Part shown: positions 3,325 through 33,904 of the stretch, in pieces
Layout: every line of letters begins with the position of its first letter
How positions within the stretch are numbered: position 1 is the stretch's first letter
NCBI RefSeq assembly: GCF_055900595.2
Contig: NZ_CM148325.1
Strand: one strand, 5' to 3'
DNA: 64,000 nucleotides
The notes under the pieces: generated by a model
The model's database searches: none
Seen by the model: the letters and a program-made list of their open reading frames with translations, nothing else
Told to the model about the DNA's origin: nothing
Program-made: the position numbers and the translations under genes

Positions 3325-3395
3325 GCCTGATGCGCTCCGCTTATCAGGCCTATAAGTTCAGTGATCTACGTAGGCCGCATCCGGCGTAAACAAAG
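3325..3395. repeat. REP pair (BIME) between lacA and cynX
   Basis: gcctgatgcgctccgcttatcaggcctat ... gtaggccgcatccggcg, inverted REP copies. Confidence 0.7.
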
Positions 3396-5102: not shown

Positions 5103-5762
5103 TTACGCTGCGGCCGGCTGGCGTAGCGGTATGGCACAAACGCAAGGATTAGCGGCCAGTGGCACAAACTGGCGGGTTGCGCCGTCAAAGGCTGCGATAC
5201 TTCCGCTTTCAATGTCGTAGACCCAGCCGTGCAGAGCGATCCGCCCCTCTTCGAGCGCCAGGCGCACCGATGGATGAGTTTGCAAATTAGCCAACTGAGC
5301 AATGACGTTTTCACGTACCATCGCCGCAGCTTTTGACGCTAAATCGGAATGCGGGCGCGCCTCATTAACGACGCGAGCTGAATCGGCATAACGCAGCCAG
5401 TGGGAAACAGCTGGCATATGGTCCATGCACTGACAGCTGGCAATGGCAGTCATCGCGCCACAGTTGGAATGACCGCAAATCACAATGTCAGATACCCGAA
5501 GCGCAGCGACGGCATACTCCACCGAAGCAGAAACGCCACCAGGTTCCGGTCCGTAGGAAGGGACGATATTGCCCGCGTTGCGAATCACGAACAGATCGCT
5601 AGGTTCGCGTTGCGTCACCAGCTCAGGGACCAGACGGCTGTCGGAGCAGGAGATAAAAAGTGTGCGCGGGCTTTGCTGTGTCGCCAGCTGTTTAAACAAG
5701 GCTTCCCGCTTCGGAAATGCCTCGCGCTGGAATTTAAGGAATCCATCAATAATCTCTTTCAC
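5103..5762 (-). CDS. cynT: beta-class carbonic anhydrase, 219 aa
   Basis: [16 protein letters not shown]...; CSDSR and HSNCG motifs; GTG start at 5762. Confidence 0.93.
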
Positions 5763-5871: not shown

Positions 5872-6771
5872 ATGCTCTCTCGACATATCAATTACTTTCT
5901 TGCCGTGGCTGAACATGGCAGCTTCACCCGTGCCGCCAGTGCGTTGCATATCTCCCAGCCTGCGCTTTCCCAGCAGATTCGCCAGTTAGAAGAGAGTTTG
6001 GGCGTACCGCTGTTTGACCGTAGCGGGCGAACGATTCGTCTCACCGATGCGGGAGAAGTCTGGCGACAGTACGCCAGCCGTGCGTTACAGGAACTGGGGG
6101 CGGGTAAACGGGCGATTCATGATGTTGCCGATTTGACGCGAGGATCGCTGCGCATCGCCGTCACCCCCACCTTCACGAGCTACTTTATCGGCCCTTTAAT
6201 GGCGGATTTCTATGCGCGTTATCCCGGCATCACGCTCCAGCTACAGGAAATGTCACAGGAGAAAATCGAAGATCTGCTTTGCCGCGACGAGCTGGATGTT
6301 GGGATTGCCTTCGCGCCGGTGCATTCGCCGGAACTGGAGGCAATACCTTTACTGACAGAAAGTTTAGCGTTAGTCGTGGCGCAACATCATCCACTGGCAG
6401 CCCATGAACAGGTGGCGTTGAGTCGCTTGCATGATGAAAAACTGGTACTGCTCAGCGCGGAATTTGCCACCAGAGAGCAAATTGACCACTACTGCGAGAA
6501 AGCGGGGCTACATCCACAGGTGGTGATAGAGGCGAACTCAATTAGCGCAGTTCTGGCGCTGATTCGCCGCACTTCCCTTTCCACATTGTTGCCAGCAGCG
6601 ATTGCCACACAACATGACGGGCTTAAAGCTATTTCTCTTGCCCCACCGTTACTGGAGAGAACGGCGGTTTTGTTGCGGCGGAAAAATAGCGGGCAGACAG
6701 CCGCCGCAAAGGCATTTTTGCAAATGGCGTTGGATGAATGTGCGGTTGTTGGCGGGAATGAATCACGGTAG
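5872..6771 (+). CDS. cynR: LysR-family activator of the cyn operon, 299 aa
   Basis: Divergent from cynT; LysR HTH N-terminus [43 protein letters not shown] at 5872 inside ORF 5848..6771. Confidence 0.92.
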
Positions 6772-6799
6772 CCGCTGACACAGGTCAGCGGCTGGAATT

Positions 6800-6865
6800 G
6801 CCTGATGCGCGACGCTTATCAGGCCTACGAGTTCAGTGCAAGGCGTTCAAGCCGCATCCGGCATA
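6800..6865. repeat. REP element(s) between cynR and codA
   Basis: gcctgatgcgcgacgcttatcaggcctac and gccgcatccggc motifs. Confidence 0.6.
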
Positions 6866-6891
6866 AACTACGCTCGCTGCAACCCAGCCGA

Positions 6892-8175
6892 TTACCGTTT
6901 GTAATCGATGGCTTCCGGCTGCTCCAGATACACGGTGGTTTGTGCCGGTTGCGTGGTGGCAATCACCTTACCACCACGTACCGAATAGCGTACCGGAACC
7001 TGACGGCGCAGCGCATCAAACCCATTTTCAGCCGGCAGGATAATCAGGTTAGCGCTGTTTCCGGCGACTATGCCGTAATCCTGCAAATTCAACGTCCTGG
7101 CGCTATGGTGGGTGATTAAATTCAGGCCGTCGTTAATCTGCCCGTAGCCCATCAACTGACAAACATGCAGCCCCATATGCAGCACTTGCAGCATATTCGC
7201 CGTTCCCAGTGGATACCACGGATCGAAGACATCATCGTGACCAAAGCAGACGTTAATGCCGGACTCCAGCATCTCTTTAACGCGCGTAATACCGCGACGT
7301 TTTGGATACGTATCGAAACGCCCTTGTAGATGAATATTGACCAGCGGGTTGGCGACAAAGTTAATACCGGACATTTTCAGCAAACGGAACAGGCGCGAGG
7401 TATACGCCCCGTTATAGGAGTGCATTGCCGTGGTGTGGCTGGCGGTGACTCGCGCGCCCATGCCTTCACGGTGAGCCAGGGCGGCAACGGTTTCGACAAA
7501 GCGCGACTGTTCGTCATCGATCTCATCACAGTGAACATCGATGAGACGGTCGTATTTTTGCGCCAGGGCGAAGGTTTTATGCAGCGACTCCACGCCATAT
7601 TCACGGGTAAATTCAAAATGCGGAATCGCCCCCACTACGTCAGCCCCTAAGCGTAACGCCTCTTCCAGCAACGCTTCACCGTTGGGATACGACAAAATCC
7701 CTTCCTGCGGGAAGGCGACGATTTGCAGATCAATCCACGGCGCGACTTCCTGCTTCACTTCCAGCATCGCTTTTAGCGCAGTCAGGGTTGCATCCGAAAC
7801 ATCGACATGGGTACGCACATGCTGAATGCCGTTGGCAATCTGCCATTTCAGCGTTTGCCATGCGCGTTGTTTCACATCGTCATGGGTTAATAACGCTTTG
7901 CGCTCGGCCCAGCGTTCAATGCCTTCAAACAGCGTGCCGGACTGATTCCAGTTCGGTTGCCCGGCGGTTTGCGTGGTATCCAGGTGAATATGCGGCTCCA
8001 CAAACGGCGGTAAAACTAAACCTTGCTCGGCATCCAGGCTGTTTTCTGTTACGGGCATCACGCCGGATTGCGCATCAATGGCGCTGATTTTTCCGTCCTG
8101 CAGATGAATCTGCCACAGCCCCTCTTTGCCAGGTAACCGGGCGTTAATAATTGTTTGTAAAGCGTTATTCGACAC
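6892..8175 (-). CDS. codA: cytosine deaminase, 427 aa
   Basis: [16 protein letters not shown]... amidohydrolase fold; GTG start at 8175 preceded by GGAGG; overlaps the codB 3' end. Confidence 0.93.
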
Positions 8176-21971: not shown

Positions 21972-22939
21972 AGCAGACTCCGGTTCTGATGCTGACTCCA
22001 CGCCGTGGCGCTAATGCTGGCAACGATGATGATGCCTGTGATCAATGTTTGCCAGTAAGACGAGACTCCCAATAAATTTAGCCCGTTTTGCATCACTGCC
22101 AACAACACCACGCCGAGCAAAGTACCGGTTAACGTGCCGCGCCCGCCGAGCAAACTAGTGCCGCCAAGCACCACCGCAGCCAGTACTGTCAGCTCATAAC
22201 CCAGAAGAGAATCGGGGGCGACAGTCATCACCGTCCACGACTGCACTACACCCGCAGCACCAGACATCAATCCCATATAGCCGTAAACGAAAAGTTGCAG
22301 TTTCAGCACGCTAAAGCCGATGCGACTGGCTGATTCACGGTTCCCGCCAAGGGCATAAATTTTGCGCCCTACACTGGTGAAATTCATGATAAACGCTGTC
22401 AGCAGCACCACCGTAATCATGGCGATCAGCGGCAGACCAAGGCCATAGTCATAGCCGTCAGCATCGGTGTACTTGAACAACATTACCCCCTGCTCAAACC
22501 ACGGCGGAAAGTCGTACAGCCACACACCTTTACTCAACCATAACAGCAGGCCATAGAAAATATTCAGCGTCGAAATGGTGATGATGATAGAAGGCACCCG
22601 TAGGCGATTAACCAGTAAGGCGTTTATTAAGCCAAGTAAAATGCCGATGCCGCCCGCCAGGGCAAACGCGACAGCAAAGTTGCCACCCATTTTTTGTAGC
22701 AACAGCACCATGCCGTATTGCGCAATGATGGTCATTGCCGGAAACGAAATATCAATTCCACCGGAAATTAACACCACAAACAAACCACAGGCGAGAATAG
22801 TCAACATGGCATAGTTATTGGCGAGATCGTACAAATTACCGAATGTCAGAAACTCGTCGCTGCGCCAGGCAAGGCCAACAAACAGCACTATAATCAGTAA
22901 TGCCAGCCAGAATTCATGGCGTTTTTTCAGTTCAGCCAT
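21968..22939 (-). CDS. sugar ABC transporter permease (CUT2 family, RbsC/LsrC-like), 323 aa
   Basis: Polytopic membrane ORF; start overlaps the ATPase stop. Confidence 0.85.
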   Translation of the reverse strand: MAELKKRHEFWLALLIIVLFVGLAWRSDEFLTFGNLYDLANNYAMLTILACGLFVVLISGGIDISFPAMTIIAQYGMVLLLQKMGGNFAVAFALAGGIGILLGLINALLVNRLRVPSIIITISTLNIFYGLLLWLSKGVWLYDFPPWFEQGVMLFKYTDADGYDYGLGLPLIAMITVVLLTAFIMNFTSVGRKIYALGGNRESASRIGFSVLKLQLFVYGYMGLMSGAAGVVQSWTVMTVAPDSLLGYELTVLAAVVLGGTSLLGGRGTLTGTLLGVVLLAVMQNGLNLLGVSSYWQTLITGIIIVASISATAWSQHQNRSLL

Positions 22940-24416
22940 TTACCACCTCCGCAATCCTGGCCTGAGAACTGCTGTCAGGCAGGAAGCTATGGGTGATCTG
23001 ACCTTTTTGCATTACCAAAATCCGGTGGCTTTGATACCACGCTTCTTCAATTTCATCGCAGATCATCAATACCGCAATGCCATGAGCCGCCAGATCGCTG
23101 ATAATGCCGTATATTCCTGCTTTGTTGGCGATATCAACACCGACAGTCGGGCTATCGAGAATCAACAGTCGTGGCCCAATCGCCAGCCATTTGGCGATCG
23201 ATACTCGCTGCGCGTTACCCCCGGAAAGCGTATTCACCGGGAGATGTGGGTCAGAGACTTTGATGGTCAATGCCTTAATTAGCCTGTCCACCAGGTCACG
23301 CACTTTAGCTTCACTCAGAAAGCCGAAGCGATCTTTTACCTTGTGAAAAACAGTGCTAATGATGTTGTCTTCAATAGATTGCGCCATCACCAAACCGCGC
23401 GACATGCGATCTTCCGAAACATAACCAATACCGTGGCGGATGGCGTCCTGGTTACTATGCAGTGTAACCGGCTGACCGTTGATGAGGATCTCACCAGCAT
23501 CCGGTCGGGTCATACCAAACAGACTCAGACATAATTCCGTGCGCCCCGCACCAAGCAGGCCAACAATCGACACCACTTCGCCCGCTTCCACCCGCAAGTT
23601 AATATTTTGATATTCCCCATGACGACTTAAATTACGCACCTCCAGCACTGGGGTGCTGGATTTTCCCTGCCACAACTCTCGCACCTGATATTCAAACTCC
23701 TGGCCGGTCATCAGGAAACCGAGTTGTTTTGTGGTCATCTCTGCAGCCGGAAAGGTCCCGACCAGCTCACCATCTTTCAACACTGAAATACGGTCGGAAA
23801 CTTCCATCACCTCTTCCAGACGATGACTGACGAAGACCACGCAGATCCCGCGTTCCCGCAATTGATGCACCACCTGTAATAACCCTTGCACTTCCTGATG
23901 GGTCAGCGAAGCGGTTGGTTCATCCATCACGATCAACCGTGCGTCCTGCGCCAGTGCACGGCAAATTGCCACCAGCTGACAGCGGGCAATTGAAAGCTCA
24001 GAAACGAGCGTATCCAGTGGCAATGTGACGTTAATACTGGTCATTGCCGCCTGCGCCACCTCACGCAGACGACGTCGGTTAACAAACAGTCCGTGGTGAT
24101 AGTGATTCACGGCGATATTCTCCCAGACACTCAGGTTAGGAAATAAAGAGAGGTCCTGATAAATCACCTGAATCCCCTGCGCCACCGAAGCGGCGGGTGT
24201 CAGCTTTGACCAGTTTTTCCCACCAAGCGTAATTTCCGCCCCCTCATCCGGGCGATAAACACCGGACATAATTTTAATCAACGTCGATTTACCACAGCCG
24301 TTTTGCCCGGCAAGGCAGTGCACCTCACCCGACATAAAGTCGAGAGAAACATCGCGCAGCGCTCGCGTGGCATGAAACGTTTTGTTGATATGACGAAGGG
24401 AAAGGAAGGTTTCCAT
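22932..24416 (-). CDS. sugar ABC transporter ATP-binding protein with duplicated ABC domains (RbsA/LsrA-like)
   Basis: Walker A GQNGCGKST, signature LSGGNAQR and a second ABC domain; ATG at 24416 (METFLSLRH...) preferred over the TTG at 24431. Confidence 0.85.
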   Translation of the reverse strand: METFLSLRHINKTFHATRALRDVSLDFMSGEVHCLAGQNGCGKSTLIKIMSGVYRPDEGAEITLGGKNWSKLTPAASVAQGIQVIYQDLSLFPNLSVWENIAVNHYHHGLFVNRRRLREVAQAAMTSINVTLPLDTLVSELSIARCQLVAICRALAQDARLIVMDEPTASLTHQEVQGLLQVVHQLRERGICVVFVSHRLEEVMEVSDRISVLKDGELVGTFPAAEMTTKQLGFLMTGQEFEYQVRELWQGKSSTPVLEVRNLSRHGEYQNINLRVEAGEVVSIVGLLGAGRTELCLSLFGMTRPDAGEILINGQPVTLHSNQDAIRHGIGYVSEDRMSRGLVMAQSIEDNIISTVFHKVKDRFGFLSEAKVRDLVDRLIKALTIKVSDPHLPVNTLSGGNAQRVSIAKWLAIGPRLLILDSPTVGVDIANKAGIYGIISDLAAHGIAVLMICDEIEEAWYQSHRILVMQKGQITHSFLPDSSSQARIAEVVNG

Positions 24417-24464
24417 AGCATCCCCTGGCAATAAGAATCGGGGCTTTCGCCCCGAAGAAATGGA

Positions 24465-25451
24465 TTAATAAAGTGAGTCAATATTGTCTTTGTTGACCAG
24501 TAATACCTTATGGAAACGGATAATTCGCTTATCCATATCTACGTCGGCCTTACCGAGATTCTCCATTTCTAATCCAGGTTTGATCTCTTCACCCTTCAGC
24601 AACGTGCTGGCGACGGCCGCGAGTGCGTAACCTGCAGAGGCCGGATCGTAAGTAATCCCTTCGGTGATATCACCACTTTTAATCAATGATGCCGCCTGTG
24701 AAGGGATCATCATGCCATAGACTGCGACTTTATTTTTCGCCCGTTTCTCTTTCACCGCACGTCCCGCGCCAATCGGACCGTTTGAACCAAAGGAGACAAC
24801 CGCTTTCAAGTCAGGATAGGTTTTCATCAGGTCCAGTGTGGTACGACGTGAGTCATCCACACTCTCGGCAACCGGCATGCGGCGGGTAACTTCATGCATA
24901 TCCGGGTAATGCTCTTTCTGGTATTTCACCAGCAAGTCAGCCCATAAGTTATGCTGCGGCACGGTCAAACTACCCACATAAATCACATAGCCGCCCTTGC
25001 CACCCATGCGTTTCGCCATATGTTCAACATATTCAGCGGCAAATTTTTCGTTATCAATGATTTCGATATCCCAGTTAGCACTTGGCTGACCGGGGGATTC
25101 GTTGGTCAGAACCACAATTCCGGCATCTCGCGCTTTTTTGAATACCGGTTCTAGCACGTTGGCATCGTTTGGCACGATAGTAATTGCGTTAACCTTACGA
25201 GCGATTAAATCCTCAATAATTTTAACCTGTTGCGGAGCATCAGTACTTGAAGGTCCCACCTGTGACGCATTAACCCCAAAGGCTTTACCTGCCTCGACCA
25301 CACCTTCGCCCATGCGATTAAACCACGGCATACCATCGACTTTAGAGATATTCACCACGACTTTTTCCGCTGCCTGGAGCGGCGAGGAAATTAGCGCAGC
25401 GCCTAATAACAGCGAAGACACCATATTGATAACAAAACGTTTATTCATCAT
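24465..25451 (-). CDS. periplasmic sugar-binding protein (RbsB/LsrB-like), 328 aa
   Basis: Signal peptide MMNKRFVINMVSSLLLGAALISSPLQAAE; type I periplasmic-binding-protein fold; C-terminal NKDNID motif resembles LsrB as recalled. Confidence 0.8.
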   Translation of the reverse strand: MMNKRFVINMVSSLLLGAALISSPLQAAEKVVVNISKVDGMPWFNRMGEGVVEAGKAFGVNASQVGPSSTDAPQQVKIIEDLIARKVNAITIVPNDANVLEPVFKKARDAGIVVLTNESPGQPSANWDIEIIDNEKFAAEYVEHMAKRMGGKGGYVIYVGSLTVPQHNLWADLLVKYQKEHYPDMHEVTRRMPVAESVDDSRRTTLDLMKTYPDLKAVVSFGSNGPIGAGRAVKEKRAKNKVAVYGMMIPSQAASLIKSGDITEGITYDPASAGYALAAVASTLLKGEEIKPGLEMENLGKADVDMDKRIIRFHKVLLVNKDNIDSLY

Positions 25452-25701
25452 TTCAGCCTCATTGCAGGGTAGTCAGGAAGTGTTCGCCCAAATTAGCGCG
25501 CTGGAGAGAATAAGAATTTTCGAATATTTTTATGCAGAATAAACAGCCCTATTTCAGGCAGCTATTAAAAATTTGGTTATAAATATGGACAAAACGGGCA
25601 GTAACAATAAGTGTGACAATCATCACGTAAAAAATAGCAAAATAAACAAAATTAGCGATACTTTATGTTTATGAGCTTATTTCGCGTAGAAAAATAGTTA
25701 T

Positions 25702-26112
25702 CTACACAATGTCAATAAGGGCATATTCTTCAAAGATAACGTCCATTTCGGGTGAATAGCATCCTTCTGCCTGGAAAAAACGACGGTGTTCATTACGCCA
25801 ATATTCAAGACTGAGGTCACCTTCACCTTCCTTACGGGCAAGCTCCGCGGTGACATCAGAAAAGCGCAGTAAATGCAGGCCAATAACTCTGATAACACAT
25901 ACAGGCTCACCACGGCTATTTTCTACAATCTTATACTCACCAATCATCGGAAATGCGTTGTCTTCAATACATCCCGCCAGCGAACCACAGGAAGCTGTTT
26001 TAACACCAGTCGCAATCAACGTTGCGAGGTGATCGGCCAACGCTTCTGAATCGCCAAAAGTACAAAAGGAAGCATGGGGATATTTTTGTGAGATTTTTTC
26101 TTTTATGGTCAT
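25702..26112 (-). CDS. ASCH-domain-like small protein
   Basis: ORF 25702..26145; ATG at 26112 (MTIKEKISQ...) or GTG at 26145; assignment by sequence resemblance only. Confidence 0.5.
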   Translation of the reverse strand: MTIKEKISQKYPHASFCTFGDSEALADHLATLIATGVKTASCGSLAGCIEDNAFPMIGEYKIVENSRGEPVCVIRVIGLHLLRFSDVTAELARKEGEGDLSLEYWRNEHRRFFQAEGCYSPEMDVIFEEYALIDIV

Positions 26113-26408: not shown

Positions 26409-27791
26409 TCAACCTGCCACACTCCCCCACACCATTTGCCCTTTATGGAACGTTGCGGTTCTCGGCGAGATACGCGCCACCGCCTCGGCGGAACAGGAGG
26501 CGTCCACCAGCACAAAGCTGGCGTCATCCTGCGCTTTAGGCCAGACGCGCTCGCCTTTTTCGTTGAGCGGCAATACATCACCAGTGGCTAAAAACAGCGA
26601 GCGGGACAAATTCTGTTCGTTAGGACGAATATAGAGCTGCGCGTACAGATTGGCTTTTTCCAGCATGTCGCCCAGGCCGTAAGGCGACCAGTGGTCGATA
26701 ACGCTGTCGGTGCCGGTCATCACTTTTACGCCTTTGTCGTGCAGCTGTTTGAGCGGCATATGCAACGTGCCAATCGGCACCGTCGAGGCGATCGAGATTT
26801 GCTGCGCCGCCATCCGGTTCGCCAGTTCATCTACTTGTTGCTCGTTGAGGGTAGCCAGCGCAAAGGCGTGGCTGATGGTCAGCTTGCCTTTTAGCTGCGG
26901 CGTTTTCTCCACTGTTTCAACCATATAATTGATGGCTGCCACGCCCGCCGGAGTGGTTTCGTGCAGATGAATATCGACGCCTTTGTCGTAGTCCAGCGCA
27001 ATCTGGAACATGGTGTCGAGGGATTTTTCCATCGCGCCATCAACACTGGTCGGGTCCAGCCCGCCGACGTAATGCGCGCCTGCCTGCATTGCTTCACGCA
27101 TCAAGGGTTCCGATTTCGACAGCAGCAAACCGTGCTGCGGGAAGGCGACGATTTCACACTCGAAGCCCGCCTGACGTCGCGCCAGCACCGCCTGCAAATT
27201 TTGCAGATTTTTCAGGCCGGAAACCGGTTCGATATTGCAGTGGCTGCGGGCAATGGTGGTGCCTTTCGACTGCAATAAATCGATCAGTTTTTCTGCCCGC
27301 TCCTGCGTGTAGGGTTGCAGTTCCGGCAGCATTTTTTGCTCGAGTTTGATCATGTCCTGGATAGTGGTGCCTGCCGGGCGATTGAGCGAGCGCCACGGCC
27401 CACCGTAAAAGGTTTTGTCGAGATGAATATGCATGTCGCGGGTGGTGGGCAGCATCAGCTTACCGCCAGCGTCATAGTGCGGCAGCGTGGCGTCCGGATG
27501 CTGCTTGTTCTCGCGCAGCGCGACAATTTTGCCGTCCTGAATCTCCACGGTCTGGCGCGCCGTGCGGGTCTGCACCGCCACGCCATTTTCATAGTCAAAA
27601 CCGGTTTCCAGCAGCACGTTGTCGAGATAGTAGTGCGGGTCAGTGATTTTCATGGTGTTATTCGCGTCGCAGTGGGTGGTGCCAGAGACCTCCGCATGGG
27701 CGAATGGCACAGAGGTACCAAACAGCGCGGCGGCGGTGACCATCTTACCGCTCTGGCTCAAAAACTCACGACGGCTATTGTTTTCTTTCAT
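26409..27791 (-). CDS. yahJ: Tat-signal amidohydrolase/deaminase family protein, 460 aa
   Basis: N-terminal twin-arginine motif SRREFLSQSGKMVTAAALFG; metal-dependent amidohydrolase fold. Confidence 0.85.
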   Translation of the reverse strand: MKENNSRREFLSQSGKMVTAAALFGTSVPFAHAEVSGTTHCDANNTMKITDPHYYLDNVLLETGFDYENGVAVQTRTARQTVEIQDGKIVALRENKQHPDATLPHYDAGGKLMLPTTRDMHIHLDKTFYGGPWRSLNRPAGTTIQDMIKLEQKMLPELQPYTQERAEKLIDLLQSKGTTIARSHCNIEPVSGLKNLQNLQAVLARRQAGFECEIVAFPQHGLLLSKSEPLMREAMQAGAHYVGGLDPTSVDGAMEKSLDTMFQIALDYDKGVDIHLHETTPAGVAAINYMVETVEKTPQLKGKLTISHAFALATLNEQQVDELANRMAAQQISIASTVPIGTLHMPLKQLHDKGVKVMTGTDSVIDHWSPYGLGDMLEKANLYAQLYIRPNEQNLSRSLFLATGDVLPLNEKGERVWPKAQDDASFVLVDASCSAEAVARISPRTATFHKGQMVWGSVAG

Positions 27792-27800
27792 CTTACGTCC

Positions 27801-28751
27801 TTACGTTTTAATAATATGGGTGCCCGTCTCGCCACGCAGCGCCGCGGGCAGGCATTCCGGCGTGGTGATAATCACTTCTTTGCCGCCCTGTTCTAAAAAT
27901 GTCAGGCTGGCGATGATTTTTGGCAACATGCTGCCAGGCGGGAAATGCCCTTCCTGCATATAGCGGGTCATGGTGGCAATATCCACCCGATCCAGCGCCT
28001 GCTGCTGCGGTTTGCCAAAATGAATACAGACTTTTTCCACGCCGGTGGTGATCACCAGAATGTCGGCGTGAATTTCGCGGGCCAGCAGCGCGGTGGAGAG
28101 ATCTTTGTCGATAACCGCGTCCACGCTTTGGTAATCTCCCGCGTCAGTACGCACCACCGGAATTCCGCCACCGCCCGCACCAATCACCACAAACCCTTGT
28201 TGGATCAGCGCTTTAATGGCAGGTGCTTCAACAATACGTTTCGGTTCCGGCGAGGCGACCACGCGGCGATAGCCGCGTCCGGCATCTTCAACAAAACGCC
28301 AGTCAGGGTTTGCCTTTTGTAATTCGTTACGCTGGCTTTCACTGAAGAATGCGCCAATGGGCTTGGTGGGGTGAGCAAACCCCGGATCGTTTTTATCCAC
28401 TTCCACCTGAGTCACCACAGTGACGGCTTTTTTCTCGCCGTGGCGCGCCAGCCGATTGTTCAGCGCCTGTTGGATCAAGTAGCCAATGCCGCCTTGCGTA
28501 TCTGCCACACAGTTCGCCAGCGGCGTTAAGGGCAGCCCTTCGCGCTCGTGGGCAATCTCCGCACGGCGTAGATCCAGCCCAACCTGCGGCCCGTTGCCGT
28601 GGGTCAGCACAATGTCGTAATCGGAAGCCAGCATTTCCAGCACCGTCTCGGCGACGGCCTTCACCGCCTCCGCCTGATGCTCAATCGACTGGCTGGCGTT
28701 ATCTTTGATAATGCTGTTGCCACCAATGGCAACGACCACAAGTTCTTTCAT
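27801..28751 (-). CDS. yahI: carbamate kinase-like protein, 316 aa
   Basis: Amino-acid kinase family N-terminus MKELVVVAIGGNSI... Confidence 0.85.
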   Translation of the reverse strand: MKELVVVAIGGNSIIKDNASQSIEHQAEAVKAVAETVLEMLASDYDIVLTHGNGPQVGLDLRRAEIAHEREGLPLTPLANCVADTQGGIGYLIQQALNNRLARHGEKKAVTVVTQVEVDKNDPGFAHPTKPIGAFFSESQRNELQKANPDWRFVEDAGRGYRRVVASPEPKRIVEAPAIKALIQQGFVVIGAGGGGIPVVRTDAGDYQSVDAVIDKDLSTALLAREIHADILVITTGVEKVCIHFGKPQQQALDRVDIATMTRYMQEGHFPPGSMLPKIIASLTFLEQGGKEVIITTPECLPAALRGETGTHIIKT

Positions 28752-28789
28752 GTTGTTATGTCCGCTACAGAGGGTGATGGGGTTATGAC

Positions 28790-29160
28790 CAACGCCAGAC
28801 AGCCTGATGCGCTACGCTTATCAGGCCTACAGATTCTTGTGCCATTCGTAGGCCGGATAAGGCGTCCACGCCGCATCCGGCAATGGTGACAAATGCCTGA
28901 TGCGCTACGCTTATCAGGCCTACAGATTCTCGCGCCACTCGTAGGCCGGATAAGGCGTTCACGCCACAACCGGCAATGGTGACAAATGCCTGATGCGCTA
29001 CGCTTATCAGGCCTACAGATTCTTGCGCCACTCGTAGGCTGGATAAGGCGTTCACGCCGCATCCGGCAATCGTGACAAATGCCTGATGCGCTACGCTTAT
29101 CAGGCCTACAGATTCTTGCGCCACTCGTAGGCCGGATAAGGCGTTCACGCCGCATCCGGC
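28790..29160. repeat. Tandem BIME/REP array, 4 copies of a 93-bp unit
   Basis: gcctgatgcgctacgcttatcaggcctac recurs at 28802, 28895, 28988 and 29081, each followed by an inverted REP gtaggccggataaggcgttcacgccgcatccggc; ORF 28748..29263 across it is a translation artefact. Confidence 0.9.
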
Positions 29161-29183
29161 AGAGACAACGCGCACTTTGCAGG

Positions 29184-30602
29184 TCAGACACCGTAACGTT
29201 CGCACCAGCCAAGAATGGCTTTTTCGAAGCAGGCGAATGGTGGATGCACAATGCCCGCGCCAATCATGCCGACGCCCGCATCTTTATGGGCAATGGCGGT
29301 GTTGATCACCGGCAGAATGCCACTGCTACCCACGCGGGTGATGTCGATTGCCGTCGGCACACCCATAAAACCGAGCAGCGGAATGGTCACGTTGGGGTTT
29401 TCGCCGAGAGTGATTTCGCGCATCTGACGGGAGAAATCGATAGCCTCTTCCACCGTACCGCCCACCAGCGCGACGATTGCAGGCGCGGTCGCCATCGCAA
29501 ATCCACCAATGCCGTAGGTTTCGGTGATGGCGCTGTCGCCAATATCCAGCCCCGAATCTTCCGGCTTATAACCGGCAAACATCGGGCCGATGACCTGTTG
29601 CGCCGGGCCGGTAAACCACTGCCCCGGCAGGCCGCTGACTCGCAGGCCGAACTCGACACCGTTACGCGCCATGGTGGTCACCACGGTGCTGTATTCAATG
29701 CCGTGCGCCGCATCCATCGCTGCTTTACACATTGCCATCCACGTCGGGCCGGAGAAGTAATCGCTGCTGGCGACAAACTCAAACACTTCACGCTGTTGCT
29801 CGACAGAATAGCCCGCCTGAATAATCCCCGGCGTCAGCGCCTGAATCAGCAGCGTCGTCCCGGCGTTATTGCGGTTATGGCATTCATCTCCCATATGCAG
29901 CGCCTGCGCCAGCATTAAGCGCAGATCGATTTCGCCGATAATTTTCATCGCGTCGCGCAGCATGGGCCCCTGCACATCGCGCATCCAGTTGAGGCGGTCA
30001 ATCACGCTCTGATCGTTGGCACCCATACGCAAAATCTTCGCCATCTGCTCGCTCATATTGGTGTAAGCGATGTTGCCGTAGGTTTTGTTTTTCACGATGT
30101 GCATAAACATCGAGGCCGAGGTAACACCCGCCATCGAACCCACGCAGTCGTGCTCGTGGCACGGCGAGAAGGTGATCTCCCCGGAAGCCGCCAGTTCGGC
30201 CGCCTCGTCGAGATCTTTCGCCAGCCCTTCGAACACCAGCGCCCCGGTGACCGCGCCTTTCATAGCGCCGCACATTTTTTCCCAGGTCACTGGTGGCCCG
30301 GCGTGAAGAATGGTTTTCGCCGTCATGCCAGGCACCACGTTAATCGCCTGATCAAAACCAATCAGCACCGGATGCGACTGGATAATGCGTTCCAGCGCCT
30401 GCTGGTTAGCGGCGGCGATTTTGTCTGCCAGCGGCGAATCGGCAATGTTGTCCAGCGCCTGCACCACCTGCATATTGCCCTGCCCCGGCGGCGTCCAGTC
30501 GAGTTGGGTCACTTCTACATGCTGCTTTTTCAGATCATCGCTAAACATGGCGATGCCGACGTTAATAACGTTCAACGGTTGGCTAAACAGTGACGGACTC
30601 AT
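29184..30602 (-). CDS. yahG: DUF1116-family protein, 472 aa
   Basis: ATG overlaps the yahF stop (ATGA); paralog of ylbE-type proteins. Confidence 0.85.
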   Translation of the reverse strand: MSPSLFSQPLNVINVGIAMFSDDLKKQHVEVTQLDWTPPGQGNMQVVQALDNIADSPLADKIAAANQQALERIIQSHPVLIGFDQAINVVPGMTAKTILHAGPPVTWEKMCGAMKGAVTGALVFEGLAKDLDEAAELAASGEITFSPCHEHDCVGSMAGVTSASMFMHIVKNKTYGNIAYTNMSEQMAKILRMGANDQSVIDRLNWMRDVQGPMLRDAMKIIGEIDLRLMLAQALHMGDECHNRNNAGTTLLIQALTPGIIQAGYSVEQQREVFEFVASSDYFSGPTWMAMCKAAMDAAHGIEYSTVVTTMARNGVEFGLRVSGLPGQWFTGPAQQVIGPMFAGYKPEDSGLDIGDSAITETYGIGGFAMATAPAIVALVGGTVEEAIDFSRQMREITLGENPNVTIPLLGFMGVPTAIDITRVGSSGILPVINTAIAHKDAGVGMIGAGIVHPPFACFEKAILGWCERYGV

Positions 30603-32149
30603 CAGGCTTCCTCCCCTTTGCAGATAAATTCACGCGCCAGCAATCCGGTGTTGGTGCTACTGCTCGCCAGAATCACTCCGGCATCAAGCAGCATCTGGCT
30701 TTGTTGTGCTAACGATGGCGTATCGAGATCGGTACCCAGCACATAGGCGAGAATGATCAACTCGCGGCCTTCGGCGGCAGCGATCGCTTTCGCTTCTTTG
30801 ATCGCCTTGATGGTGGAACCGACCGGATCTTCATGCGATCCAAATCCGAGCACAAAATCCATCACGATCACCGCCACTTCTGGATCACGTGCTTCTTCGA
30901 TCAAGCGACTGATGCGATTGGTCGGGTCAATCATTGGATGCGGCTTGCCGTTGGTGAAGTCGTCATCGCCAAAGTCGAGGAAGGTATGTTTGATGCTGCG
31001 GTTGATATCTTGCAGGCGGAATTCAGGATCGGGCTGGATGTTGCTGTAGACATCGCCGTGTTTTTCCATCACTGCGAACATGGTTTCGTCGCACAGTGTG
31101 CCGCCGCAGAACAGGCCACGAATGTATTTCTGCTGCGGTTGCAGGCGAGCGCGCACATCCGCAATCAACGGCTGGTTCAGGGTATGCAGGTCGAGATGTT
31201 CTTGTTTCACGCCGGAGAGCATCACCGCTTTCAGTGCCGCCTCTTTGCTGCCGCGAGCAAACTGTAGCCCCTGCTCATCCACTGGCGTTTCGCCACGACC
31301 GAGGAAGCAGACCACCACCGGCTTGCGGCAGGCGCGTGCGCGTTCCAGCACTTTGCGGGCCACCGCAGGCGCAGGCGGTTTGGAGATAAGTACAATGATT
31401 TCAGTTTGCGGATCGTTTTCCAGCATCCCGATAGCGTCGAGCATCATCAGGCCGCCGATTTTCTCGCTCAGGTCGCGCCCGCCGGTGCCAATCAGTTGCG
31501 AAACGCCGCCGCCAAATTCATGAATACGGACGCTCAGTTCCTGGCTACCGGTGCCGGATGCGCCAACAATACCGATGTTGCCGCGACGCACAGCGTTACC
31601 AAAGCAGAGCGCCGCGCCGTTGATAATCGCCGTGCCGCAGTCTGGCCCCATCATCAGCAGCCCTTTTTCGTGGGCCAGTTGCTTGAGCGCCAGTTCATCT
31701 TCAACTGAGACGTTATCGGAAAACAGCATCACGTTAAGATCGTTTTGCAGCGCCTGACGCGCTTCGCGAGCGGCAAACAGACCGTTGACCGAAATCACTG
31801 CCAGGTTACTTTCCGGGATATGCTTTTTGGCGCTGGCAATAGTGGCGTAACGCGCCTCGTGCGAGCCACTTTGCGCTTTGCTGTTGAACAGTTCTTCAAT
31901 CTCCACCAGCAACTGCTCGTTGTCTGCGCCCGCTTTGCCGTTGATGACAATCATCAGGTCGCCGTTTTTCGCCTGCTCCAGCTCCGGCGTCAGCAGCCCT
32001 AAATTCTTCAGCACGCCTTTGTTCATTTCGGTCGCCATCGCCACAAATGCCTGCTCGACGCCGTCGAGTTTATTTGCACGCGTGGAGATAGACATCAGCG
32101 AGACAGAATCAAAATAGGTATTCGGTTTAATGACTATTTTAACTGACAT
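30602..32149 (-). CDS. yahF: FdrA-like CoA-binding protein (succinyl-CoA synthetase alpha-like fold), 515 aa
   Basis: 515-aa ORF resembling FdrA; translationally coupled to yahG. Confidence 0.85.
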   Translation of the reverse strand: MSVKIVIKPNTYFDSVSLMSISTRANKLDGVEQAFVAMATEMNKGVLKNLGLLTPELEQAKNGDLMIVINGKAGADNEQLLVEIEELFNSKAQSGSHEARYATIASAKKHIPESNLAVISVNGLFAAREARQALQNDLNVMLFSDNVSVEDELALKQLAHEKGLLMMGPDCGTAIINGAALCFGNAVRRGNIGIVGASGTGSQELSVRIHEFGGGVSQLIGTGGRDLSEKIGGLMMLDAIGMLENDPQTEIIVLISKPPAPAVARKVLERARACRKPVVVCFLGRGETPVDEQGLQFARGSKEAALKAVMLSGVKQEHLDLHTLNQPLIADVRARLQPQQKYIRGLFCGGTLCDETMFAVMEKHGDVYSNIQPDPEFRLQDINRSIKHTFLDFGDDDFTNGKPHPMIDPTNRISRLIEEARDPEVAVIVMDFVLGFGSHEDPVGSTIKAIKEAKAIAAAEGRELIILAYVLGTDLDTPSLAQQSQMLLDAGVILASSSTNTGLLAREFICKGEEA

Positions 32150-33002
32150 AATTCCCTCCGTAGGTTTGGCTCAGCGCACAACCATCGGCCATGCCATACA
32201 GCATGTCGCAGCCGGAACTGGAGCCAATATGTTTAATTTTTTCTATTGCCTGAGTTGCGTTCCCAGGTATGTCATAAATAATGTTATGAATAAAACGATG
32301 AATATTTTCCCGGCAGCGTTGTTGTAATGCGGCTTCCAGCGTTATGGCACTTAATAACGTGGTATTATTTCTGCCGCGTTGCAGACCGAGATAAAATTCC
32401 TCTTTGTATTTTTCCGCCGGATGCCCGGGAATAAATAAAATAAGCGCCAGACCTGTTAAATAATCGTCGGCTGATGGCGTAAGGCCAATCCCTAACCCCA
32501 TCATACTGACGACCGCTGAGGCGATATTTTGTTTATCGTTTACTGCCTGAATAACTGCCCGTCGTTTAATATGTAATTCTTTATTTAACGCCTGATAAAA
32601 CGGATTATCGCCACAATAATTAAACAGGGTTTCATTTTCCCCCAGGTGTTGATGAATAATGTCGTGCCACTGTTGCCAGGCGATAAGGTGAAAATTTTCA
32701 GCGGTCATTTGCAAAGCGGGGGACAGCCAACGCTGGCAATGACTCATCTCTATATGAAGATGTTGACCAACCGTAATACCTTGATCATCAAACTGAACCT
32801 TATCACCATGACGGAACAGACCATCAAAGTGAGTGAGTGCCAACCGACAACTGTTTGGCGCATTGTCGTACTCTTCACAAAGCAGTGTCAGCAACTGCTG
32901 GCGAGCCGGGATTGCGATATTTACCGCTCTGGCAAAGACCTGTTCAACTTGTCCTTGCCCCCGCTGCGCCAGAAAATCAGCATCCGCAGTTAGCGCCCAC
33001 AC
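32139..33002 (-). CDS. yahE: DUF2877-family protein, 287 aa
   Basis: 287-aa ORF with GTG start at 33002; overlaps the yahF start by 11 nt. Confidence 0.8.
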   Translation of the reverse strand: MWALTADADFLAQRGQGQVEQVFARAVNIAIPARQQLLTLLCEEYDNAPNSCRLALTHFDGLFRHGDKVQFDDQGITVGQHLHIEMSHCQRWLSPALQMTAENFHLIAWQQWHDIIHQHLGENETLFNYCGDNPFYQALNKELHIKRRAVIQAVNDKQNIASAVVSMMGLGIGLTPSADDYLTGLALILFIPGHPAEKYKEEFYLGLQRGRNNTTLLSAITLEAALQQRCRENIHRFIHNIIYDIPGNATQAIEKIKHIGSSSGCDMLYGMADGCALSQTYGGNYVS

Positions 33003-33041
33003 ACACCGTCTTTCTGGTGTGTTGATAGCAAACCTCCCGGT

Positions 33042-33647
33042 TTATGCGCCTGCGGCAATCAGCAACTGAGCAATCTCTTCAAAGCCCCGTTCCCGCGCCA
33101 GTTCCAGCGGCGTTTTGCCATATTTGTCGGTCAGATGCGGGCTGGCACCGTGCTCCAGCAATAACTGGACAATCGCCTGCTGTTTAATCCCGCCATCGTT
33201 AAGCACAATCGCTTCCAGTAGCGGCGTCCAGCCAACATGGTTGGTCTGGTTAACGTTAATATCCGTATGCGCCAAAAGCTCTTTTACAATACTTAAATGG
33301 CCTTTTTCACAGGCAGGCGTCAGGCCGACACCGCCGAAACGGGTTACACAATTAAGGTCTGGTTTAGCCGGTAAAATAATTCGTAGTAGCGTTAAATCAC
33401 CGTTCAGGCAACTCATTAAAAAAGGATTTAAACAGGTCTGGTCTTGTTTATTAATATCCGCACCGGCATCAATTAACGCCTGAACGCAAGCATATTGCTG
33501 ATATAAACTTGCCAGCGTAATTGCCGTTTTCCCCTGGCGATCGCAGGTATTTATATCTACCCCCAGAGCAAGGCAGGTTTTTACTTTATCGATATCACCC
33601 TGTTGTGCAGCCAATAAATAATCGGCAGGTAGATTTTTTATACTCAT
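33042..33647 (-). CDS. yahD: ankyrin-repeat protein, 201 aa
   Basis: Ankyrin repeats visible (GADINKQD..., TPLLEAIVLNDGG..., HGASPHLTDKYGKTPLELA); ATG at 33647. Confidence 0.85.
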   Translation of the reverse strand: MSIKNLPADYLLAAQQGDIDKVKTCLALGVDINTCDRQGKTAITLASLYQQYACVQALIDAGADINKQDQTCLNPFLMSCLNGDLTLLRIILPAKPDLNCVTRFGGVGLTPACEKGHLSIVKELLAHTDINVNQTNHVGWTPLLEAIVLNDGGIKQQAIVQLLLEHGASPHLTDKYGKTPLELARERGFEEIAQLLIAAGA

Positions 33648-33904
33648 TAACATTCCCCTGTTTTTTGTGGCTGTTTTCGATGAATTGAGAATAGCAACGA
33701 TAATCTGATAAAAGAACCCGCTTAAATTTAATTCGCCGTATTTCGCCTTTTTGTTGAATGATGTTCAACAATCTTTTCGCAGTGTGCGGTAGTGCAATAT
33801 TTGTTTCTTTGACCCGATACCCTTTCACTCAATCAGGTTTTATTTCTCTATAGTCTGCACATGTAAGAGTAGCTTTCGTCCATGTCTAACCAGAGGGGAA
33901 CAAG

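Follow-up and report, generated by a model that had tools for sequence, protein, structure and literature searches.

The 432-nt gap between yahG and yahI in the window (the whole 64,000-nucleotide stretch of DNA analysed here) is occupied by a tandem repeat, and it raises the question of what kind of element this repeat is, whether the long open reading frames that run through it belong to a gene, and what the repeat does to the genes on either side. The explanation that we consider likely overall combines the identification of the array as the BIME-2 known in K-12 as REP23 with a mechanism in which its hairpins act as a barrier in the messenger RNA. The flanking genes were identified through a 100% match to NZ_CP098223 and the annotation of that record; both are encoded on the minus strand, and the array, falling after the yahG stop and before the yahI start, is extragenic.

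Tandem Repeats Finder reports a single array at 28802-29161 (period 93, 3.9 copies, 95% matches, 0% indels, score 664), and a repeat search finds 174-nt copies, three in number, which lie in register at a spacing of 93 nt with 94-100% identity. When the array is written out it resolves into four units. In each of them a 17-nt linker separates a z2-type REP from an inverted y-type REP, after which comes a linker of 12 nt; because this second linker is missing from the final unit, the length of the array is 4x93-12 = 360 bp. The four tandem 93-bp units proposed in a reading made from the sequence only are thus confirmed by Tandem Repeats Finder, by the in-register repeat search and by the unit dissection; the span given in that reading, 28790-29160, does hold the array, but it starts 12 nt too early and ends 1 nt short.

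A pattern search detects the z2-type REP GCCTGATGCGCTACGCTTATCAGGCCTAC as an exact match in all four of its copies and the inverted y-type REP GTAGGCCGGATAAGGCGTTCACGCCGCATCCGGCA in four copies with 0-2 mismatches, against a chance expectation of 0 for either REP in dinucleotide-preserving shuffles of the window. The eight elements are 29 and 35 nt long, carry GTAG/CTAC, and each fold into a hairpin with an internal mismatch. The y and z2 elements alternate four times, with GTAG leading in y when the plus strand is read and in z2 when the minus strand is read, so that the earlier proposal of a REP paired with an inverted REP holds for the alternation of orientation but not for the identity of the partner, which is a REP of the other class (y) rather than an inverted copy of the one quoted. 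The repeat search of the array returned no inverted pairs, owing to REP arms that are short and imperfect and to the difference between y and z2; the palindromes are revealed instead by the pattern search and by folding. Comparison of the array with itself and with the REP consensus, either of which might have undone the sequence-only reading, left it standing on both counts, the repeat being tandem and the y and z2 consensus being present. The repeat part of the query matches 8-48 places per genome among the matches listed, with a median of at least 29, in 5,425 of 5,426 genomes. The features of the locus are collected in Table 1.

Table 1. Coordinates of the REP array, its component parts, the reading frames that cross it and the neighbouring genes, in positions of the window.
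Feature	Position	Strand	Evidence and remarks
BIME-2 array, EcoCyc REP23 locus	28802..29161	.	Four 93-bp tandem units, 8 REPs; Tandem Repeats Finder and unit dissection
z2-type REP no. 1, last REP in yah mRNA	28802..28830	-	Exact z2 match; RNA hairpin -11.5 kcal/mol, mRNA sense
z2-type REP no. 2	28895..28923	-	Exact match
z2-type REP no. 3	28988..29016	-	Exact match
z2-type REP no. 4	29081..29109	-	Exact match
y-type REP no. 1	28848..28882	+	1 mismatch to y pattern
y-type REP no. 2, partly decayed	28941..28975	+	2 mismatches; two stem substitutions; unit U3
y-type REP no. 3	29034..29068	+	1 mismatch
y-type REP no. 4, first hairpin on yah transcript, 22 nt past yahG stop	29127..29161	+	0 mismatches; -20.5 kcal/mol, mRNA sense
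17-nt head-to-head linker	28831..28847, 28924-28940, 29017-29033, 29110-29126	.	Unit dissection; resembles 17-nt 'U' spacer of REP325
12-nt tail-to-tail linker ATGGTGACAAAT	28883..28894, 28976-28987, 29069-29080	.	Resembles 'l' linker of REP325/naRNA4
22-nt spacer, yahG stop codon to first REP	29162..29183	-	12 nt in K-12-type alleles
50-nt unique tail, last REP to yahI ATG	28752..28801	-	Contains weak yahI ribosome-binding region
ORF A, artefactual, 140 aa, hydrophobic frame (…AGCGVNALSGLRVAQESVGLISVAHQAFVTI…)	28783..29205	-	RefSeq: 28783-29148 'hypothetical protein' WP_072000926; K-12 equivalent 'YahH'
ORF B, artefactual, 171 aa, basic frame (…CRMRRERLIRPTSGARICRPDKRSASGICHH…)	28748..29263	-	Frame of published EHEC 'X002/YahH'; TGA overlaps yahI ATG (ATGA)
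Rfam RF02564 (naRNA4) matches, three	28851-28920, 28944-29013, 29037-29106	+	Antisense to yah genes; 75.8, 70.0, 71.5 bits against cutoff of 59.5
yahG, DUF1116 / YlbE-AllG family, upstream gene	29184..30602	-	NZ_CP098223 match and annotation
yahI, carbamate kinase family, downstream gene	27801..28751	-	NCBIfam NF009007, 648 bits

REPs are non-autonomous palindromes which are recognised by a REP-associated tyrosine transposase. This enzyme, TnpA-REP, binds the REP that bears GTAG and cuts at CT in the iREP or the linker; the features on which its recognition depends (GTAG and the stem mismatch) are present in the array, and the transposase gene lies outside the window. In the published definitions (PMC3333891) a REP is an imperfect palindrome of 20-40 nt with a conserved GTAG at its 5' foot and a y, z1 or z2 consensus; a BIME-2 joins z2 and y in tandem with short linkers, whereas a BIME-1 contains z1, is present in single copy and has a long L linker, often with an IHF site. 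The same source reports that the copy number of BIME-2 elements differs between strains and that TnpA-REP cleaves and recombines BIMEs in vitro. With y and z2 in inverse orientation, 3.9 copies of 93 bp and linkers of 17 and 12 nt, the array bears out the suggestion of a BIME in which REPs of alternating orientation are joined, and under these definitions it is specifically a BIME-2. A BIME-1 is likewise made up of a y REP and an inverted z-type REP, but the z-type REP found here is z2 (29 nt), the units are in tandem, the linkers are only 12 and 17 nt, and neither the strict nor the relaxed IHF consensus (WATCAANNNNTTR, WATCARNNNNTTR) has a match on either strand of the gap. The BIME-1/IHF assignment is rejected on these grounds; IHF, whose binding the earlier reading named as something to check, is a feature of BIME-1.

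The array is almost certainly a BIME-2 of alternating y and z2 palindromes in the yahG-yahI gap that corresponds to REP23 of K-12. The authors of EcoCyc describe yahH as 'filled with REP23 sites' (PMC11551758), and the REP23 / 'yahH' (b0322) locus of K-12 MG1655 has both flanking genes and the y/z2 units in common with the present one, with 4 units in a 421-nt gap. The two alleles differ in that the spacer after yahG is 22 nt here rather than 12 nt, in that all four inner linkers are 17 nt in the present 432-nt gap, and in the sequence of the flanking genes, which are ~95% identical. The element is already known: REPs and BIMEs, their copy-number variation and the REP23/yahH locus are all in the literature and EcoCyc, and the array, though real, is nothing out of the ordinary among the intergenic repeats of E. 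coli.

Whole units of 92/93 bp are gained or lost by the array, and E. coli strains accordingly carry 0-5 of them. Alleles differ by whole units, variants of which are common to different alleles, and the distribution of unit number among 116 sampled E. coli genomes (0 units in 11%, 1 in 43%, 2 in 3%, 3 in 4%, 4 in 32% and 5 in 6%) agrees with the expectation, voiced from the sequence alone, that copy number would vary between strains. With no REP at the junction in ~11% of the sampled strains and a single unit in 43%, a large array cannot be a requirement. The locus itself is carried by 5,048 genomes. Alleles nearly identical to the present one are rare (11-13 of 5,157-5,582 matching records, from 5,426 genomes), and some units in other strains have a 16-nt linker between the REPs, which shifts the reading frame. 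The filler sequence of the REP-less allele was found by megablast in 164 genomes, a count which is a lower bound because diverged fillers exist; spread samples put the share of this allele at ~11%.

Palindromes are present in the gap in every E. coli allele fetched and also, in related genera, at those junctions that lack a gene. In E. coli the allele without REPs retains a 10-bp hairpin with compensatory changes, which suggests that structure is wanted at this junction, and the yahI-proximal 37 nt of the unique tail are conserved in all E. coli alleles fetched, the REP-less one included. E. albertii also has the 22-nt form of the spacer, which seems to be the earlier one. Some REPs in units U2 and U3 of the window's array carry uncompensated stem mutations, and in other genera the same junction holds unrelated palindromes or a whole gene, for a putative transporter. 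The membrane protein that fills the gap in those genera has no sequence match in Pfam, NCBIfam or the PDB; its model has UraA-fold/SLC26-like structural matches, which are tentative because the AlphaFold model is poor (mean pLDDT 54).

The effect that the array is likely to have on expression depends on its position in the transcript. The genes yahD-E-F-G-I-J all run the same way, and the array forms the sole long gap in the series; on their strand, a search from yahG to yahI turned up nothing resembling a sigma-70 promoter or an intrinsic terminator. Both observations support the proposed placement of the array inside the yahD-yahJ operon. Plus-strand matches of these kinds occur only inside yahI, at chance frequency, and the promoter-like one at 28685-28712 agrees at 9/12 positions. 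The energies of the hairpins in the mRNA sense (-20.5 kcal/mol for y and -11.5 kcal/mol for z2) are similar on both strands, and the fold of the RNA of the whole gap, at -186.4 kcal/mol, is more stable than that of shuffled sequences (-160.0 +/- 6.7; z = -3.96). The sense RNA contains no C-rich, G-poor stretch of the kind that would serve as a Rho loading site, as its C/G ratio is 0.93 taken as a whole and exceeds 1.21 in no window of 78 nt.

The minus strand encodes the transcript of the operon yahDEFG-(array)-yahIJ, so that this RNA includes eight stable hairpins in 432 nt of untranslated intercistronic sequence. Such hairpins would be expected to block 3'->5' exonucleolytic decay and so to stabilise the yahDEFG message, and they may also cause a partial, and partly Rho-dependent, attenuation of transcription into yahIJ; the outcome would be an upstream-biased expression whose strength scales with the number of units. 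The precedent is REP325, which stabilises the upstream yjdM mRNA and attenuates the downstream yjdN ~8-10-fold, partly via Rho, in a study (bioRxiv 10.64898/2026.03.23.713779) that also finds tandem gene pairs with a REP to be upstream-biased genome-wide, and that makes no mention of REP23 or yah. The mRNA stabilisation or differential expression suggested from the sequence alone corresponds to what was shown for REP325. By analogy with this case, the likeliest role of the array, one to which we give roughly even chances, is that of a hairpin barrier that would keep the upstream yahDEFG mRNA stable and in part hold back transcription from running on into yahIJ. Counting against it are the opposite orientation of REP325 relative to its transcript, the lack of a Rho-type stretch in the sense RNA, the alleles with no REP or a single unit, and the context-dependent and highly variable effects that the same study stresses for REPs.

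Of the three frames in the gene sense, two stay open through the array, with 0 and 3 stop codons in the gap. The long open reading frames known as 'YahH' are by-products of the repeat, because y and z2 lack stops in two of the sense frames and the period, 93 = 3x31, is a multiple of three, and in the present allele they span the whole array because all four inner linkers are 17 nt. REP325, a homologous array with a 100-bp period which serves as a control, has 6-11 stops in every frame and no long ORF. The ORFs of 171 and 140 aa, this control and the instability of the frame across strains all uphold the view that the repeat peptide is an artefact of a period that is a multiple of three. As annotated, YahH is anything from 53 to 121 aa long, begins at either GTG or ATG and ends at different points; the 106-aa 'putative uncharacterized protein YahH' of K-12 MG1655 is in the repeat phase that RefSeq also chose for the present strain. 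The frame relation of the ORF to yahG changes by allele, and in the K-12-type, B2-type and O157 alleles one open frame runs on, in the yahG frame, from the yahG stop codon. No Pfam family matches the ORF products at or above its gathering score, and the only NCBIfam match above cutoff, to SidA (40.7 bits against 35), is spurious, being the sum of four 13-residue repeat matches. With start, stop, length and frame unconserved and no credible protein family, 'yahH' lacks the properties of a protein-coding gene. An ORF that couples translation into yahI was also considered and rejected: the open stretch varies from 0 to 171 codons across ten alleles and its frame relative to yahG changes, and the ATGA overlap at the yahI start is due to chance, since the TGA is merely part of ATG-AAA.

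It has nevertheless been claimed that a protein is made from the array, which is the observation that would have told against the artefact. Neuhaus et al. 2016 (PMC4765031) reported ribosome footprints on X002/yahH in EHEC EDL933 (RPKM 56, coverage 0.61, RCV 0.64), and on this evidence, together with the two open sense frames and the frame that is continuous with the yahG stop codon in the K-12-type, B2-type and O157 alleles, yahH could be seen as a genuine translated gene in a 'triple function' locus, where either the repeat protein or translation itself matters, for example by suppressing Rho-dependent attenuation; earlier work cited in PMC4765031 found that translation of a BIME abolishes such attenuation there. 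A claim of this sort thus exists in print, but it is weak: the reads were mapped with Bowtie defaults, with no uniqueness filter stated, onto REP-like sequence that recurs at many places per genome, no MS peptide was found, and in O157 the published ORF and the RefSeq 'YahH' occupy different frames of one repeat. The ORF, moreover, is missing where there are 0 units and could not fit into the gaps of 1-unit alleles, which are 142-153 nt long, it is frameshifted by the variation between 16- and 17-nt linkers, and it starts inside the first y hairpin without a Shine-Dalgarno sequence, so that a genuine yahH gene is very improbable. We give equally little credence to a regulatory version of the same idea, in which ribosomes crossing the repeats would open up the hairpins and protect the RNA against Rho, after initiating at an ATG or GTG inside the first y REP or, in the K-12, B2-type and O157 alleles, by reading through the yahG stop into an array that is open in the yahG frame; unit number and the 16/17-nt frameshifts would then form a strain-specific dial on yahIJ, with YahH as a side product or a functional one.

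Of more weight is the possibility that the array is a neutral passenger, a selfish or drifting repeat in a permissive gap (the scar of the transporter gene of other genera) that has no meaningful effect on the yah genes. The range of 0-5 units, the frequency of REP-less and single-unit alleles, the uncompensated stem mutations in U2 and U3, the unrelated palindromes or whole gene at the junction in other genera, and the finding that REP effects are context-dependent and highly variable (bioRxiv 10.64898/2026.03.23.713779) are all compatible with it. Eight stable hairpins in an untranslated intercistronic RNA are, however, unlikely to be inert, given the size of the effect of the homologous REP325, and the REP-less allele conserves a hairpin by compensatory changes; neutrality is accordingly judged rather unlikely. 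It is improbable that the first REP instead down-regulates yahG, with a terminating ribosome stalling and provoking mRNA cleavage and tmRNA tagging (the Liang-Rudd-Deutscher mechanism). REPs less than 16 nt from a stop codon do lower translation of the upstream gene, according to the summary in PMC12306157, and ribosome stalling could occur in K-12-type alleles, whose spacer is 12 nt, but the first REP of the present allele lies 22 nt from the yahG stop, beyond the reported range, so that the effect should not apply, and the 22-nt form, shared with E. albertii, is apparently the older. It is more doubtful still, and indeed barely plausible, that the array is a source of naRNA4-like ncRNAs which bind HU, bridge cruciform DNA and condense the chromosome. 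naRNA4 was defined from REP325 (PMC4550694), to which the present units are homologous, and three matches to RF02564 exceed the gathering score, but all three are on the plus strand, which is antisense to the operon and whose sole promoter-like match is the chance-level one in yahI; the gene-sense strand scores 47-53 bits, below the cutoff of 59.5, and a 2026 study in which the same laboratory was involved found neither measurable nucleoid compaction by REP325/naRNA4 nor a stable HU-cruciform ternary complex.

The locus matters in part for annotation hygiene. 'Protein YahH' or a 'hypothetical protein' is still called on the repeat in many RefSeq E. coli genomes, a different frame through it has entered the literature as a novel translated gene, and the repeat peptide exceeds the cutoff of the unrelated NCBIfam family SidA. 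The natural allelic series at this junction, with its 0-5 units, 12- and 22-nt spacers and 16- and 17-nt linkers, could also be used to test the terminator/stabiliser model of REP arrays.

One of the closest known systems is the yjdM-yjdN array REP325, the source of naRNA1-6. REP325 and REP23 are both tandem arrays of y and z palindromes with similar 12- and 17-nt linkers, placed between co-oriented genes of one operon, but in REP325 the period is 100 bp, there are 5.8 copies, the second palindrome is longer and z1-like, no long ORF is present, and the array lies in the opposite orientation relative to the transcript; its function is known by experiment, whereas that of REP23 is proposed by analogy. 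The naRNA4 match points to a shared repeat family and is no sign of a shared function, because the covariance model is in effect one y-l-z BIME unit. A further parallel is provided by the gyrase cleavage sites mapped by Topo-seq (PMC6379681), which are enriched in BIME-2 elements, mostly at y REPs, and are independent of transcription; the yahG-yahI locus is not named in the text of that study or in its accessible supplements. REP23 shares the y/z2 tandem architecture of generic BIME-2 gyrase sites such as sucC-sucB and tldD-yhdP, and by analogy with these, its use by gyrase being putative, the y REPs of the array are probable gyrase cleavage sites that would act independently of transcription.

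The tandem element in the yahG-yahI gap has every sequence-level feature of a BIME-2. E. coli REPs, classed as y, z1 or z2, are imperfect palindromes of 30-40 nt that carry a GTAG at the foot; a BIME-1 is a lone pair of z1 and y whose long L linker often contains an IHF site, while in a BIME-2 pairs of z2 and y are repeated in tandem, with short linkers and in strain-variable number (PMC3333891, Ton-Hoang et al.). In the window, z2 and y REPs alternate in orientation, with short linkers, in an array that was returned as a single repeat by Tandem Repeats Finder and as three 174-nt copies, in register and 93 nt apart, by a self-repeat search. Each palindrome is present in four copies, those of the first all exact and those of the second with 0-2 mismatches in a pattern search that gave zero matches to either pattern in shuffled sequence; the final unit lacks the 12-nt linker. 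The sequence-only reading had placed four BIME units at 28790-29160, which locates the array correctly but starts 12 nt early and ends 1 nt short, and its tandem structure and BIME label both hold. Its interpretation is supported apart from two points: the second palindrome is of y type, different from the first rather than an inverted copy of it, and IHF, a BIME-1 feature proposed for checking, is not expected here, because the array is a BIME-2 and the IHF consensus is absent from both strands of the gap. By analogy with the class, where sites of gyrase cleavage are over-represented, mainly in y REPs (PMC6379681), gyrase would be the relevant DNA-binding protein; the locus is unnamed in the supplements of that study. 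The element (REP23 of EcoCyc in the K-12 gap; PMC11551758), its phantom ORF and BIME-2 copy-number variation in general are already described. Two more z2-like REPs in the window lie outside any array of the y/z2 unit.

Features of the window around the yahG-yahI array, and parts of the repeat unit
Feature	Coordinates	Strand	Details
yahD	33042-33653	minus	
yahE	32139-33002	minus	
yahF/fdrA	30602-32149	minus	
yahG	29184-30602	minus	
yahI	27801-28751	minus	
yahJ	26409-27791	minus	
Array	28802-29161		period 93, 3.9 copies, 95% matches, no indels, score 664
Palindrome 1 of unit			29 nt; plus-strand reading GCCTGATGCGCTACGCTTATCAGGCCTAC
Linker 1 of unit			17 nt; plus-strand reading AGATTCTTGCGCCACTC
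Palindrome 2 of unit			35 nt; other type, opposite orientation; plus-strand reading GTAGGCCGGATAAGGCGTTCACGCCGCATCCGGCA
Linker 2 of unit			12 nt; plus-strand reading ATGGTGACAAAT
ORF	28748-29263	minus	171 aa
ORF	28783-29205	minus	140 aa
RF02564 matches	28851-28920, 28944-29013, 29037-29106	plus	above gathering score
z2-like REP	3325-3353	plus	2 mismatches
z2-like REP	6800-6828	plus	1 mismatch

The window is E. coli DNA, identical (100%) to strain Z0117EC0005 (NZ_CP098223). The 432-nt yahG-yahI gap is the sole long junction among the yah genes, the others overlapping or spanning at most 39 nt, and the array takes up 360 nt of it, after a 22-nt spacer from the yahG stop and before a 50-nt unique tail that runs to the yahI ATG. 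A simple scan of the gene strand in and near the gap found no sigma-70-like promoter and no intrinsic-terminator-like site, which, with the close junctions, fits but does not prove co-transcription of the six genes. The yahI and yahG DNA is only ~95% identical to that of K-12, a distance about equal to that from E. albertii and E. whittamii (93.6-95.0% identity), and the exact allele is rare. The yah region (26409-33653) is suggested to be a deeply diverged or imported allele, because of this low identity to K-12 and because only 11-13 records among 5,426 genomes match at >=99%. On the 3' side of yahJ (~22300-26100) lie an ASCH-domain gene and a sugar/autoinducer-2-type ABC transporter, where K-12 has yahK and yahL instead. 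Large plasmids also gave matches to one flank at ~95% identity (119 plasmid places), some of them at carbamate kinase genes resembling yahI and others at a DUF1116 gene resembling yahG; judged from these matches, some strains may carry a partial yah cluster copy on a plasmid.

Across the array, two frames of three are open in the gene sense and none on the plus strand. The resulting ORFs arise as by-products, because the palindrome consensus contains no stops and the period is a multiple of three; the sequence-only reading had already derived a long artefactual ORF from the latter. Part of the 140-aa ORF is annotated in RefSeq as a hypothetical protein in the window's strain, and the same repeat phase is annotated as "putative uncharacterized protein YahH" in K-12 (b0322) and also in B2 and O157 genomes, with differing starts (GTG or ATG) and ends and lengths of 53-121 aa. 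The GTG start of the window, K-12 and EC31 falls within the first y hairpin's loop, and no Shine-Dalgarno sequence was found in the 25 nt 5' of it in the window and K-12. Some units in other strains have a linker of 16 nt instead of 17, which gives a 92-bp unit and shifts the frame. REP325, whose units are homologous but have a period of 100 bp, served as a control: every frame of its 657-nt gap contains 6-11 stops, compared with 0 and 3 in the two open sense frames of REP23. Neither ORF matches a real protein family in Pfam or NCBIfam; the peptide of 28783-29148 (minus strand) scores 40.7 bits (cutoff 35) against NF033228 ("cell division inhibitor SidA"), a spurious sum of four 13-residue repeat matches that, being above cutoff, could mislead automatic naming, and K-12 yahH (6770-7090 of the fetched K-12 sequence) scores 32.5 bits.

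The case for a translated product comes from EHEC Ribo-seq, in which "X002 = yahH" (465 nt) was proposed as translated with a ribosome-coverage value of 0.64, against an average of 1.1 for annotated genes; reads were mapped with Bowtie defaults and no stated uniqueness filter, and no peptides were found for X002 (PMC4765031). REP-like sequence occurs at a median of at least 29 places per genome. When rebuilt in an O157 genome, X002 follows a basic frame (MRRERLIRPT…) through three and a half units, then slips into a hydrophobic frame at a 16-nt linker, whereas the RefSeq YahH of the same genome is hydrophobic throughout. The 171-aa frame, whose end is the ATGA at the start of yahI, was considered as a conserved coupling ORF and excluded, since its open stretch varies from 0 to 171 codons among ten alleles and the frame continuing from yahG changes between them. 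A real and regulatory translation of the repeat is poorly supported and rated very improbable.

Copy number was surveyed with a query made of the yahG and yahI flanks only, which finds one place per genome and allows the gap length to be read directly. The flanks matched in 5,048 of 5,426 genomes, both in one place in 4,993, and two independent, evenly spaced samples of chromosomal records agreed closely.

Units per genome in two samples of 58 chromosomal records each
Units	Sample 1	Sample 2	Combined (n=116)
0	7	6	13 (11%)
1	25	25	50 (43%)
2	2	2	4 (3%)
3	1	4	5 (4%)
4	19	18	37 (32%)
5	4	3	7 (6%)

The predicted strain variability is thus borne out, with 0-5 units and no longer allele among the 116 E. 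coli genomes; all seven five-unit records have a 514-nt gap and are O157:H7 wherever a serotype is stated. Gap lengths of representative sequences form whole-unit series (142/235/329/421/514 nt and 153/246/339/432 nt), and the spacer after yahG is of two types, 12 nt (K-12) and 22 nt (the window's strain and E. albertii). Particular unit variants are common to, and duplicated in, different alleles; the three-unit and four-unit B2 alleles, for instance, are set apart by a single internal unit. These comparisons point to slippage or recombination inside the array as the way in which units are gained and lost. In the 315-nt E. albertii gap the two BIME units are separated by an extra copy of the final ~45 nt of yahG and the 22-nt spacer, which indicates a duplication of flank together with unit. 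The zero-unit allele (gap 94-95 nt; 501-594 in L003, 501-595 in L091 and L092, three fetched sequences) is not a simple deletion, since its gap holds a filler of 57 nt in which a 10-bp hairpin of about -20 kcal/mol is preserved by compensatory changes from variant to variant (CCTTCTCCC/GGGAGAAGG vs CCCTTCTCCC/GGGGAGAGGG); the filler was found in at least 164 genomes, in each at this locus.

The junction was also measured at 80 orthologous yahI loci. A gene for a polytopic membrane protein of 512-529 aa separates yahG from yahI in most other genera, among them Enterobacter, the C. freundii group, Serratia, Buttiauxella and Providencia (for example at +12..+1588 of the gap in L043 and 924-2471 in L025); it is highly conserved in most Enterobacterales (L024-L090) and absent in Escherichia, whose gap thus corresponds to the position of a gene present in most relatives. 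Searches of Pfam, NCBIfam and PDB sequences gave no match for the protein. An AlphaFold model of low confidence (mean pLDDT 54) has weak structural matches only, every one of them a 7+7-TM "UraA-fold" transporter (SLC26/BicA/AzgA/UraA; best E = 5.7e-4, TM about 0.35); the protein may be the pathway's substrate permease. At all measured junctions without this gene, hairpin-forming repeats occupy the gap: E. coli-type y/z2 REPs in E. albertii, E. whittamii and Pseudocitrobacter; unrelated palindromes, in some cases with GTAG…CTAC feet of their own, in gaps of 79-195 nt in Kluyvera, Klebsiella and Raoultella (GTAGCCCGGGC…GCCCGGGCTAC pairs and CCCTCTCCC…GGGAGAGGG / GGGTGAGGG elements, among L017-L023, L039, L047, L049, L059 and L065); and a terminator-like hairpin in gaps of 87-88 nt in Citrobacter amalonaticus and a related Citrobacter. 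Repeats particular to a lineage appear to have settled repeatedly at this site.

Among elements that have been studied, the nearest is REP325, between yjdM and yjdN, which in a 2026 preprint did not compact the nucleoid, stabilised the upstream yjdM mRNA and attenuated downstream yjdN about 8-10-fold, with Rho partly responsible; genome-wide, canonical REPs between tandem genes went with upstream-biased expression, and REP effects were context-dependent (10.64898/2026.03.23.713779). By analogy we infer a dual role, in which the array would protect the yahDEFG mRNA and reduce read-through into yahIJ. The predicted fold of the entire gap is far more stable than that of shuffled sequence (z = -3.96), and palindromic, hairpin-forming sequence is kept in every E. 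coli allele fetched and in the gene-less junctions of other genera. Against a strong or Rho-driven effect weigh the lack of any C-rich Rho loading region in the array's sense RNA, the orientation opposite to REP325, the common zero- and one-unit alleles and the context dependence of REP effects. The window's 22-nt spacer lies outside the <16-nt stop-to-REP range for translational down-regulation of the upstream gene (PMC12306157), whereas the 12-nt spacer of K-12 lies inside it.

The likeness to REP325 extends to Rfam RF02564 (naRNA4, a nucleoid-associated ncRNA), a model built from REP325 that matches the array three times. Since the model is effectively one y-linker-z unit, similar BIME units may pass its threshold whether expressed or not. 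The 12-nt and 17-nt linkers of REP23 and REP325 are recognisably similar, and the hairpins are nearly equal in energy on the two strands (y, -20.5 vs -19.5 kcal/mol; z2, -11.5 vs -12.4 kcal/mol), but the orientation of REP23 relative to the transcript is opposite to that of REP325, so that its RF02564 matches are antisense to the yah operon.
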